Source: an uncultured Gammaproteobacteria bacterium
Lineage (GTDB): Bacteria > Pseudomonadota > Gammaproteobacteria > CAWJOP01
DNA length: 64,000 nt
Direction: 5' to 3'
Assembly (NCBI GenBank): GCA_963844535.1
Contig: CAWJOP010000002.1
Coordinates: 128,668 to 192,667, forward strand
This document shows, in pieces, positions 35,001-38,000 of this stretch. The first letter of the stretch is position 1. Every line of letters starts with the position of its first letter. A program made the position numbers.

Positions 35001-38000
35001 AAATCCGCGAACATACATTAAGTCGTGTACCCTATCTATTAGTGGTTGGCGATCGTGAATTAGAGACCAACACAGTTTCTGTTCGGACTTATCGAGGCAA
35101 ACAGCTTGATAACGTAACATTAGAAGCTTTTACTCAGCGTTTAGCTGATGAGGTTAATTCTCGGCAGATACCTATTTTAGAGGAGGAATAAGCAATTAAG
35201 AAAGCTGACAAAGCATTTCGCATCAATCATGAAATTCGCGCTAGCCAGGTTCGCGTGGTTAGTGCAGAAGGCGAAAAAATCGGTGTTTTGAGTTTGAGCG
35301 AAGCATTAAAAATGGCGGAAGCAGCCACGCTTGATTTGGTGGAAATTTCACCACAAGCAGATCCGCCTGTTTGCCGTATTATGGATTACGGTAAATTTGT
35401 ATTTAAGCAAAACAAACAAAAAAACCAAGCGAAAAAGAAACAAAAGCAGATTCAAATTAAAGAAATGAAAATTCGCCCGGCAACTGAAGAGGGTGATTAT
35501 CAGGTTAAATTGAAAAACTTGATCCGGTTTCTTGAAAGTGGGGATAAAGCAAAGATAACCCTGCGATTTCGAGGTCGAGAATTAATGCATCAAGAATTAG
35601 GTATGCAAATGATGCAGAGATTGTTAAACGATCTCGCTTTTTATGGTACTGCAGAGCAATTACCTAAGTTGGAAGGAAAGCAAATGGTTATGGTGCTTGC
35701 GCCCGCTAAAAAGAAATAATACGTTTTAAGAGGATATTTTATACCTCTCGGAAACAGGTTTGCGGAATTTTTTCGGTCAGTTTACAAGATATTTTAATGT
35801 TCTGATTGAGAAAAACCGCAGGAATACTGGCCTGTATTTCGAGGTTTTTCGATTGAAGAACATTAAAATATCGAAGTAAAATGAGATGAAAAAAACCACA
35901 AACCTGTTTCCGAGAGGTATATTATGGCAAAATTAAAGATGAAAACTAACCGCGGCGCTGCCAAGCGATTTAAAGCCACGGCTAATGGTTATAAGCATAA
36001 ACAATCGCACAAACGTCACATTTTAACTAAGAAGTCTAGCAAGCGGAAACGCCAACTAGGTGGTACTGCGGCGGTTAAAGATTGTGATGTGTTGTCGGTT
36101 CGACGTATGTTAGGCGATGCTTCTTAAAGGTAAAAAAAGTAAAAACGTATTCTCTATTTCGTGAGACCGTCATTGCGAGCGCGAAGCGCGCGGCAATCCA
36201 GTAAAAAGGCTTAAATTTCTTTGCTGGATTGCTTCGTCGTGCTACGCACTCCTCGCAATGACGGCCTCACGGAGAGAGGTTGAATTTGTAAGATCAGAAT
36301 ATTTGGAGAAAAATCATGCCAAGAGTTAAGCGCGGTGTTACAGCGCGAGCAAAACATAAAAAAGTGTTAACGAAAGCAAAAGGCTATCGCGAGGCGCGCA
36401 GCCGAGTTTTTAGGGTTGCGAAACAGGCAGTTACTCGTGCAGGGCAATATGCTTATCGTGATCGTCGTCAGAAAAAGCGCGTATTTAGAGCATTATGGAT
36501 TGTCCGTATTAATGCTGCTGCACGCGAACATGGTCTTTCCTATAGCCGTTTTATTGCGGGTCTTGAGAAAGCTTCTATTGCTGTCGATCGAAAAATTCTT
36601 GCAGATATTGCTGTATTTGATAAACCAGGATTTGCTTCTTTAGCTGAGAAAGCTAAATCGGCGTTGGGAGCGGCTTAAACTACGCCATACTTTTCATTCC
36701 CGCCAAGCCAGCGTTCAATGAGTGCTTCCACATGCTCGGGATAATTTTGCAGCATTTCTTCGGCAAGCTCTTGAACATGGGGCAACCATTTTTGATCGCG
36801 GATAATGTTAGCGATGCGAAATCGTGCCATACCAGTTTGCTTAGTGCCCAATACTTCGCCGGGCCCCCTTAATTCAAGATCTTTTCTAGCAATTTCAAAT
36901 CCGTCTTGACTATCACGAATGGCGGAAAGTCGCATTTGTGCTTGTTCGGACAAAGGTCCTTGGTAAAGTAGCACACAATAACTAATTGCTGCCCCTCTGC
37001 CTACTCGTCCTCTAAGCTGATGCAGTTGCGATAATCCTAATCGTTCAGAGTTTTCAATAATCATAAGGCTTGCATTGGGTACATCTACCCCAACTTCAAT
37101 GACGGTTGTTGCGACGAGTAAATCAATTGCGCCATCACGAAAGGCTTGCATCGTAATTTCTTTGTCTTGAGTTTTCATCCGGCCGTGAACTAATCCAATG
37201 CTAATTTTTGGTAGAAAATCGCGCAAAAGTTGTGTGGTTACTTCAGCTGCTTGACATTGTAATGCATCAGATTCTTCAATTAAGGTGCATACCCAGTAAG
37301 CTTGTTTTCCTTGTGCGCAGACGTTTTTAATACGTTCTATGATTTCATCACGGCGTTGTGAAGGAATCACTACCGTGGTGATAGGTTTTCGACCTGGTGG
37401 TAATTCATCAATAATGGATACATCCAAATCAGCATAAAATACCATGGCTAAAGTTCGTGGAATGGGTGTGGCGGTAAGTATTAATTGGTGCGGTGTATAA
37501 TTTTGGTTGATGCCTTTTTGCCAAAGCGCTAATCGTTGATGAACACCGAATCGATGTTGTTCATCAATGACTACAATACCTAGCGATTTGAAGTCGACGC
37601 CTTTTTGAAACAACGCATGAGTGCCGATGACGATTTGACTTCTGCCTTCTTTAAGCTCGGCTAAAAATTTCTCTTTGGTTTTTGTTGATAAATGACTAGT
37701 TAAGTAAGAAACTTCAATATTAAGTGGCGAAAACCAACGTTGAAATTGCTGAAAATGCTGTTCGGCTAAAAGTTCAGTAGGCACCATTAATGCAGCTTGA
37801 AAACCATTTTCAATAGCTTTTAACATCGTTAATCCAGCGACCACAGTTTTTCCGGAACCTACATCACCTTGAACCAGTCGCAGCATGGGTGTTTCCTGAC
37901 AGATATCTTGAGAAATTTCTTGTAACACCCGTTGTTGCGCTTTGGTTAAAGGGAAAGGTAAGTTAGCTAAAAATTCTTGTGTTATTGAAGTATGTCGAGC

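Follow-up and report, generated by a model that had tools for sequence, protein, structure and literature searches.

A miniature transposable element between the Shine-Dalgarno sequence and the start codon of rpmI in a gammaproteobacterial infC-rpmI-rplT operon

Genes and repeat elements of the operon

The DNA analysed here is a 64,000-nucleotide stretch of contig CAWJOP010000002.1 (assembly GCA_963844535.1, positions 128,668 to 192,667) from an uncultured gammaproteobacterium; the whole stretch is called the window. Its + strand carries a fragmented thrS gene followed by infC, rpmI and rplT, with recG converging on them from the opposite strand. The best named matches of the RecG protein, at ~58% identity, include one from a Legionellaceae MAG but also ones from Chromatiales and Halomonas, so that the placement near Legionellales in the preliminary description mentioned next is provisional. 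A preliminary description of the same DNA, made from the sequence alone, had drawn attention to two palindromic repeats in this operon: a MITE (a miniature transposable element with inverted repeats) between infC and rpmI, and a second element, F, between rpmI and rplT. The features on which the analysis turns are listed below in window coordinates. L-numbers (L001 and so on) denote loci or contigs from other genomes or metagenomes that were compared with the window.

35195..35719, + strand: infC (IF3), with an ATT (AUU) start at 35195 and a TAA stop at 35717-35719, from sequence and translation
35720..35739, + strand: native spacer remnant with the ancestral rpmI Shine-Dalgarno (SD) sequence AAGAGGA (35728-35734), aligning to the 15-25-nt spacers of relatives
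35740..35921, + strand: 182-bp MITE (family B of the preliminary description), the TA at each end included, with perfect 23-bp terminal inverted repeats
35924..36127, + strand: rpmI (L35), open reading frame (ORF) with Pfam Ribosomal_L35p on record
~36150..36280, + strand: F palindrome, a dispersed repeat of ~130 nt (family F of the preliminary description) with two inverted repeats (I3, I7)
36305..36309, + strand: native rplT SD GGAGA, outside the F element
36316..36678, + strand: rplT (L20), ORF with Pfam Ribosomal_L20 on record

All three genes are intact. Pfam IF3_N and IF3_C are on record for infC orthologs, and a protein identical to the L20 of the window is present in Logan and NCBI/ENA contigs. 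The ATT start of infC, as expected of an IF3-autoregulated gene, lies 3 nt past the thrS stop and just 3' of a GAGGAGG sequence; the start and this upstream context are kept in most relatives (L083, L086-L089), with ATC found in L152. For comparison of the spacers, 76 other gammaproteobacterial infC-rpmI-rplT loci were taken from a genome scan with IF3. In these, the infC-rpmI spacer has a median length of 92.5 nt (range 22-221) and the rpmI-rplT spacer one of 15 nt (8-61); the corresponding lengths in the window are 204 nt (35720-35923) and 188 nt (36128-36315). Most of what the preliminary description had said of the layout is borne out: the right terminal repeat ending 2 nt before the rpmI ATG, the filling of the two spacers by two different dispersed families that have copies elsewhere, and the unusual position, to judge from the length of the rpmI-rplT spacer. 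Its statement that the infC-rpmI spacer is "entirely" MITE has to be withdrawn, as positions 35720-35739 are native and hold the ancestral SD, which is conserved in all relatives.

The left repeat of the MITE (35740-35762, TATACCTCTCGGAAACAGGTTTG) and the right repeat (35899-35921, CAAACCTGTTTCCGAGAGGTATA) match perfectly over 23 bp. The arms stay 83% complementary when extended to 46 nt, and the element has another inverted repeat in its interior. Only spurious frames of 40-69 aa are found, making the element non-coding. The right repeat contains an SD-like GAGGU (35914-35918) placed 6 nt before the rpmI ATG. One other copy of the element lies in the window:

6368..6550, + strand: second MITE copy, 93% identical to the operon copy

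Its neighbors are an RseP-like gene on one side and, on the other, a gene judged UspA-like by eye. The gene 3' of this copy has its ATG at 6594, 43 nt past the element, and an SD of its own. The window has four matches to the terminal-repeat pattern where chance alone would give 0.01, and an exact-match scan of metagenome contigs with this pattern returned 61 stretches. Nearly all of those truly homologous to the MITE belong to a single sample, Ga0116226, where contigs matching the window at 96-100% identity were found as well. At least four further full copies were identified (in L126, L135, L094 and L103, the last being the ortholog of copy 6368-6550), along with at least five partial copies at the ends of metagenome contigs from this organism or one very like it. 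Assemblers typically break at multi-copy repeats, and contigs L081-L084 break inside the MITE and F elements. Alignment of six MITE copies placed the boundaries at TATACC...GGTATA, with unrelated sequence directly outside; the other copies are 5-20% different from the operon copy. Short, non-coding and bounded by inverted repeats, dispersed in copies with sharp ends and absent from the corresponding site in relatives (see below), the element is by its sequence a bacterial MITE as structurally defined, of the TA-targeting Correia/IS630-like type. No transposase with the MITE repeats surfaced among the 61 repeat-matching stretches, which were not searched for transposases. A literature search with the exact repeat sequences returned unrelated primer coincidences only, and both repeat families appear to be undescribed in the literature searched.

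Elements with the same terminal repeats and another core form a subfamily (L123 6401-6543, L133 5184-5326, L142 5516-5582 and L098 ~3640-3700), and L145 1540-1575 is a minimal hairpin made of the repeats only. Shared repeats combined with differing cores are, at the level of sequence, typical of several non-autonomous elements served by one transposase. A longer variant with an extra internal insert (L100 1-205) ends as GAGAGGTATGG, and its last bases are a possible ATG of a DUF3579 gene. This locus was considered as a second example of a MITE at a gene start and set aside, since the true DUF3579 start could be an ATG 27 nt downstream.

Insertion of the MITE between the rpmI Shine-Dalgarno sequence and start codon

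Relatives were found through exact look-ups of the L35 and L20 proteins, and then through IF3 homologs and the L20 cluster. The genome scan with IF3 gave only relatives at most 65% identical, and the comparison was thus built on metagenome and Logan contigs. L153 (IF3 89% identical) was excluded as an apparent chimera that breaks off 10 nt beyond the stop of infC. L154, a noisy long-read contig with many broken genes, was used only for spacer layout. The spacers of the remaining relatives, with IF3 identity to the window, are as follows.

L086: IF3 93%; infC-rpmI 25 nt; rpmI-rplT 111 nt
L087: IF3 80%; infC-rpmI 21 nt; rpmI-rplT 25 nt
L088: IF3 78%; infC-rpmI 19 nt; rpmI-rplT 119 nt
L154: IF3 identity not measured; infC-rpmI ~25 nt; rpmI-rplT ~146 nt
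L155/L156: IF3 identity not measured; infC-rpmI 15 nt; rpmI-rplT 98 nt
L152: IF3 88%; infC-rpmI 114 nt, with unrelated hairpins 5' of the SD; rpmI-rplT not covered, as the contig ends

An empty site free of the MITE is found in L086, L087, L088, L154 and L155. In all of the tabulated relatives, L152 included, (A)GAGG(A/G) stands 7-9 nt before the rpmI ATG. The same SD-bearing sequence occurs in the window (AAGAGGATATTT, 35728-35739), immediately 5' of the MITE. When the MITE and one TA are removed in silico, the resulting sequence (GAGGATATTTTATTATG) aligns without gaps to that of L086 (GAGGATATTTTTGTATG) from the SD to the ATG. Given the short SD-ATG spacing in the relatives and the gap-free alignment of the restored site, the comparison shows the MITE to have inserted at a TA dinucleotide exactly between the ancestral rpmI SD and the AUG.

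The 114-nt spacer of L152 (positions 772-885) has gained two small hairpins, inserted 5' of the SD so that the SD-to-ATG distance is untouched.

Both elements occupy the same positions in L081-L085 (independent assemblies, 96-100% DNA identity). Among these, L083, L084 and L085 represent three independent assemblies or metagenomes that are 96-98% identical to the window and have the MITE at the same site. Alignment thus shows the insertion to be common to strains that differ by 2-4% in their DNA. Comparison of rpmI with L083-L085 gave seven synonymous and no non-synonymous differences (three and none with L082), and the L35 protein is identical in four assemblies. For infC and rpmI together, the proportion of differing synonymous sites (pS) is 0.086 and that of non-synonymous sites (pN) 0.0095. 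This pattern of substitutions shows purifying selection on rpmI since the insertion of the MITE. Of the 182 bases of the operon MITE, 1 is changed relative to the ortholog, whereas infC and rpmI together differ at 12 of 139 synonymous sites (8.6%; Fisher p = 2.6e-4). The substitution, A35752G, leaves a G-U in place of an A-U pair in the repeat stem. Judged by these counts the operon copy looks constrained. The non-operon copy at 6368-6550 differs from its ortholog in L103 at 5 of 183 positions, in strains 98.7% identical overall. Assembly collapse is an unlikely cause of the low divergence of the operon MITE because the copies differ by 5-20%, and a collapsed consensus would add differences.

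Predicted fold of the spacer and initiation at rpmI

The RNA from 35700 to 35960 is predicted to fold with a minimum free energy of -103.7 kcal/mol (z = -13) into one long hairpin, the base of which is the repeat duplex. Across the ensemble, the probability of being unpaired is 0.000 for the repeat-borne SD (35912-35918) and ~0.96 for the native GAGG (35730-35733). Opening the repeat-borne SD together with the AUG costs +15.9 kcal/mol and opening a 30S-sized footprint +30.1 kcal/mol, while keeping the native SD, the linker and the AUG open with the hairpin intact costs only +2.6 kcal/mol. The native SD is ~189 nt from the AUG in the linear sequence. In the folded RNA this distance shrinks to 5 unpaired nt on the 5' side of the stem plus 2 nt on its 3' side, which makes ~7 nt. 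The predicted fold therefore has the structural features of a split ribosome-binding site (RBS), namely a spacing restored to within 5-11 nt and an accessible SD and AUG. Hairpins are predicted in both spacers (z = -13 and, for F, -5.2). The preliminary description had supposed that the terminal repeat provides the rpmI RBS. The repeat does have its GAGGU 6 nt before the ATG; what tells against the supposition is that the SD conserved among relatives is native sequence directly 5' of the MITE and not part of the repeat, and that the repeat-borne SD is fully paired within the fold.

The explanation that we favor, with a probability of roughly 0.45, is that rpmI is driven by a split RBS bridged by the MITE hairpin. 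The MITE portion of the transcript would zip into a rod-like hairpin with the 23-bp repeat duplex at its base, burying the repeat-borne SD and bringing the unpaired ancestral SD back beside the AUG, at ~7 nt, so that the ancestral 7-9 nt would be roughly restored through space. Initiation on the split site would then be by a 30S subunit or by a ribosome that has just finished infC, whose stop is 20 nt upstream. Selection to keep the hairpin would explain the conservation of the element, the whole 182 nt being conserved because folding would be needed for split-site initiation. The step from predicted structure to function is one that we infer. Domestication of the MITE into the structure that bridges a split RBS, with purifying selection for its folding, strikes us as somewhat unlikely; so does the corresponding notion that folding serves to hold the AUG within reach of the ancestral SD and perhaps also of the infC stop, for re-initiation. 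The F palindrome would most simply be a tolerated passenger or, at most, an mRNA stability or processing element. If real, the bridge would far exceed in size any other natural one between an SD and its AUG, and no earlier one would have arisen by transposition. It would mean that bacterial ribosomes initiate across a very large structured insert, and that a selfish element can become indispensable merely by where it lands. Such a reading would bear on the annotation of gene starts in repeat-rich genomes and on the rules of RBS design.

Several points weigh against a hairpin-bridged site. Known split sites bridge ~15-20 nt and the MITE 182 nt, ten times any known bridge, and the ~80-bp helix that it would form may be sterically unfavorable where it protrudes from the 30S platform. 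A predicted 3-bp pairing of the AUG with UAU at 35735-35737 would have to open. The repeat-borne GAGGU, at 6 nt, is equally good in sequence and spacing, so that sequence by itself does not argue against its use. The low divergence of the MITE could come from recombination or gene conversion instead of selection. As to the insertion itself, a duplication of the target TA is not separable from the termini of the element, since every copy ends in TA. Finally, the host is known from assemblies alone, and the route of rpmI translation is read from their sequence.

In the main rival account, which follows the preliminary description, the repeat-borne GAGGU (35914-35918) would be the working rpmI SD, freed either by RNase III cleavage or by a promoter internal to the MITE. 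We regard this as possible, if doubtful. In the first variant the long MITE duplex would be cut as in Correia elements, detaching the left arm, and the perfect 23-bp duplex with its extensions is the kind of RNase III substrate cut in those elements (PMC2649163). In the second, transcription starting in the right half of the MITE would give rpmI-rplT transcripts lacking the left arm, and one candidate promoter is found there:

35853..35882, + strand: weak sigma-70-like match (TTGAAG, 18 nt, TAAAAT; 9 of 12 positions) within the right-hand half of the MITE and directed toward rpmI

Most MITE copies retain the two hexamers, and a leader from ~35889 would be almost free of structure (-5 kcal/mol, less stable than 190 of 200 shuffles) and would leave the repeat-borne SD accessible; GAGGU would then offer a 5-nt anti-SD match at ideal spacing. 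However, the promoter match is without statistical support, three sigma-70-like sites being found in the region against 8.6 expected in shuffles, and its -35 hexamer is degraded in copy 6368-6550. As long as the transcript is full-length, the repeat-borne SD is predicted to stay paired throughout, at the energetic costs of exposure given above, and ribosomes that translate infC end at its UAA with 20 nt still to go to the stem, which they would not melt. At two other MITE copies that precede genes, the genes use their own SD. Use of the repeat-borne SD would, moreover, need few conserved bases and leaves the conservation of all 182 unexplained. It seems quite improbable, on the other hand, that the insertions are neutral or slightly deleterious passengers, with L35 made in smaller amounts or supplied from another place, such as a second rpmI copy. 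The decay of the adjacent thrS (14 frameshifts), the several dispersed repeat families in the genome and the invasion of the rpmI-rplT spacer by different elements in relatives would all fit such a view, but rpmI has accumulated no non-synonymous difference since the insertion, infC and rplT are intact, and the MITE is retained at the site in every strain sampled and evolves more slowly than synonymous sites.

The idea of the preliminary description that the L20 autoregulatory structure has been replaced or rebuilt from the repeats, whereby the MITE or F hairpin, or both, would be recruited as an L20 operator mimicking H40-H41 of 23S rRNA, is in our estimate very unlikely. The E. coli operator lies in a long infC-rpmI spacer and has two parts, each with conserved AA bulges: an intergenic stem-loop site, and a pseudoknot that joins bases just 5' of the rpmI SD to the coding region of infC (PMC1888825, PMC3616713). 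Both elements of the window do fold as stable irregular helices, the operon MITE is unusually conserved, and a small AA-containing internal loop beside G-C pairs (35766-35767) loosely resembles the AA-bulge helix of the L20 site (PMC3616713). An AA bulge in a helix is nevertheless too generic to count as a match, or to be used in a pattern search, and the same features are present in non-operon MITE copies. The comparison with relatives proposed earlier did yield MITE-free operons, but their first spacers proved too short for an intergenic operator: with 15-25 nt in five relatives, the long intergenic sequence of the E. coli type is missing, and therefore no such operator existed before the MITE insertion that could be replaced. 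Rfam searches revealed no ribosomal-protein leader, L20 leaders included, at the gathering score in the whole window or at E <= 10 in 33000-36900; matches to S15, TCL6 and SSRC8 were dismissed as noise. RNAalifold applied to the infC 3' end and spacer of six relatives gave -16.2 kcal/mol with a covariation term of +0.28, the pairs being mostly invariant, and hence no covariation support, which by itself decides neither for nor against an operator. From one examined relative to the next, the rpmI-rplT spacer changes in both sequence and length (25-188 nt). The proposal is thus unsupported, with nothing in its favor beyond generic hairpins.

Compared with the 76 loci, the spacer architecture of the clade (L086, L087, L088, L154, L155 and the window) is inverted, with a minimal ancestral first spacer (15-25 nt) and a long, variable second one (25-188 nt). 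This arrangement suggests a different mode of L35 and L20 control in the clade, and indicates that control in the E. coli style is not universal in Gammaproteobacteria. The operon and gene order are the same as in E. coli and the AUU start of infC is kept; whereas the intergenic positions of the E. coli operator were mapped to at least nt 78, with a pseudoknot into infC (PMC1888825), the ancestral spacer of the clade is far shorter and no comparable structure was detected in it.

Among known systems, the MITE, to go by its sequence, most resembles the Correia elements (CREE/NEMIS) of Neisseria, which are ~105-157 bp long, have repeats beginning with TATA, use a TA target, are bound or cut by RNase III and have ends that can make promoters (PMC2649163). 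It shares with them a small, non-coding, multi-copy nature, TATA-initiated repeats, the TA target and a predicted long RNA hairpin; the Neisseria elements are often found 5' of genes and are co-transcribed with them (PMC2649163), as the MITE of the operon would be. It differs from them in its length of 182 bp, its host lineage and the lack of any sequence similarity, and the likeness is known here from sequence alone. In the Correia study consulted (PMC2649163), no element was noticed that separates an essential ribosomal protein gene's start codon from its SD. As for split sites, intervening hairpins in T4 genes 38 and 25 bring the spacing from 22 to 5 nt and from 27 to 11 nt, respectively, as confirmed by mutagenesis (PMC3014915). 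There, as in the window, the SD is too far away in the linear sequence and a stable hairpin restores the spacing (here from ~189 to ~7 nt, as predicted); the insert in the window is, in contrast, a mobile element, ten times longer and arisen by transposition, and its function is deduced rather than demonstrated. Coxiella burnetii, a pseudogene-rich gammaproteobacterium, has two MITE families that are conserved between strains, QMITE1 and QMITE2, with effects on nearby genes proposed to be exerted through transcription and RNase processing (PMC5896051). QMITE1 measures 300-400 bp with variable direct repeats of 2-3 nt, and QMITE2 150-190 bp with direct repeats of 7-11 nt (PMC5896051); neither matches the TA-flanked 182-bp MITE, as set apart by their descriptions and not by sequence comparison. 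If the repeat-borne SD were used instead of the split site, the operon would provide a clean case of a transposon end supplying the translation signal of an essential gene, probably through RNase III. Under either reading the MITE-free relatives are natural, built-in controls, and the value of the case lies in its being a natural and easily testable instance of an essential gene whose RBS is split by mobile DNA.

The rpmI-rplT spacer and the surroundings of the operon

The F palindrome of the rpmI-rplT spacer is predicted to fold as RNA with -90.9 kcal/mol. A second copy is present in the window, and further copies occur in metagenome contigs L094, L139, L145 (two) and L103.

~10919..11028, + strand: second, diverged F copy, from its sequence match to the palindrome at ~36150-36280

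The last 19 nt of the spacer (tatttGGAGAaaaatcATG) are identical in the window and in L086 despite a different element upstream, which places the rplT SD in native sequence outside the F element; the GGAGA is also kept in L087 and L154. The F insertion is thereby shown, on the strength of this alignment, to have left the rplT SD intact. Each relative has a different sequence in the rest of the spacer, in L086 and L154 with palindromes of the GGGGTGAGG type. As the palindromes of these relatives are unrelated to F, different repeat families must have invaded the spacer independently, and comparison across the clade shows it to be a recurrent landing site. The palindromes themselves, at L086 5695-5790 and L154 ~4855-4975, are GC-rich and of the CCCCTCTCC...GGGGTGAGGG type.

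Directly 5' of the operon lies the remnant of thrS:

33271..35191, + strand: thrS, an apparent pseudogene directly 5' of infC, in at least seven ORF fragments

Relative to the intact ortholog of L086, this gene has 14 indels of 1-2 nt. Its 3' part differs from that of strain L083 at 6.4% of sites, compared with 1.9% for infC. The gene is intact in L086-L089, and in the close strain L083 the frame is still open in the 3' part. Unlike thrS, all other long ORFs of the window are intact, and thrS looks like a genuine recent pseudogene. Since thrS is normally essential, its disruption implies a second thrS elsewhere.

In E. coli, infC promoters lie inside thrS. The best sigma-70-like match of the region (TTGAGA, 17 nt, TAAAAT; 10 of 12 positions) is found inside the 3' end of thrS at 34976-35004, ~190 nt 5' of infC; it is without statistical support and could be the equivalent of those promoters.

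The window also contains a 165-bp repeat in three copies ~93% identical to one another (3812-3976, 5002-5166 and 58342-58506). The first two directly flank an ORF at 3978-5081, and a 68-bp piece of the repeat matches L088 at 92.6%, so that it is shared with a more distant relative.

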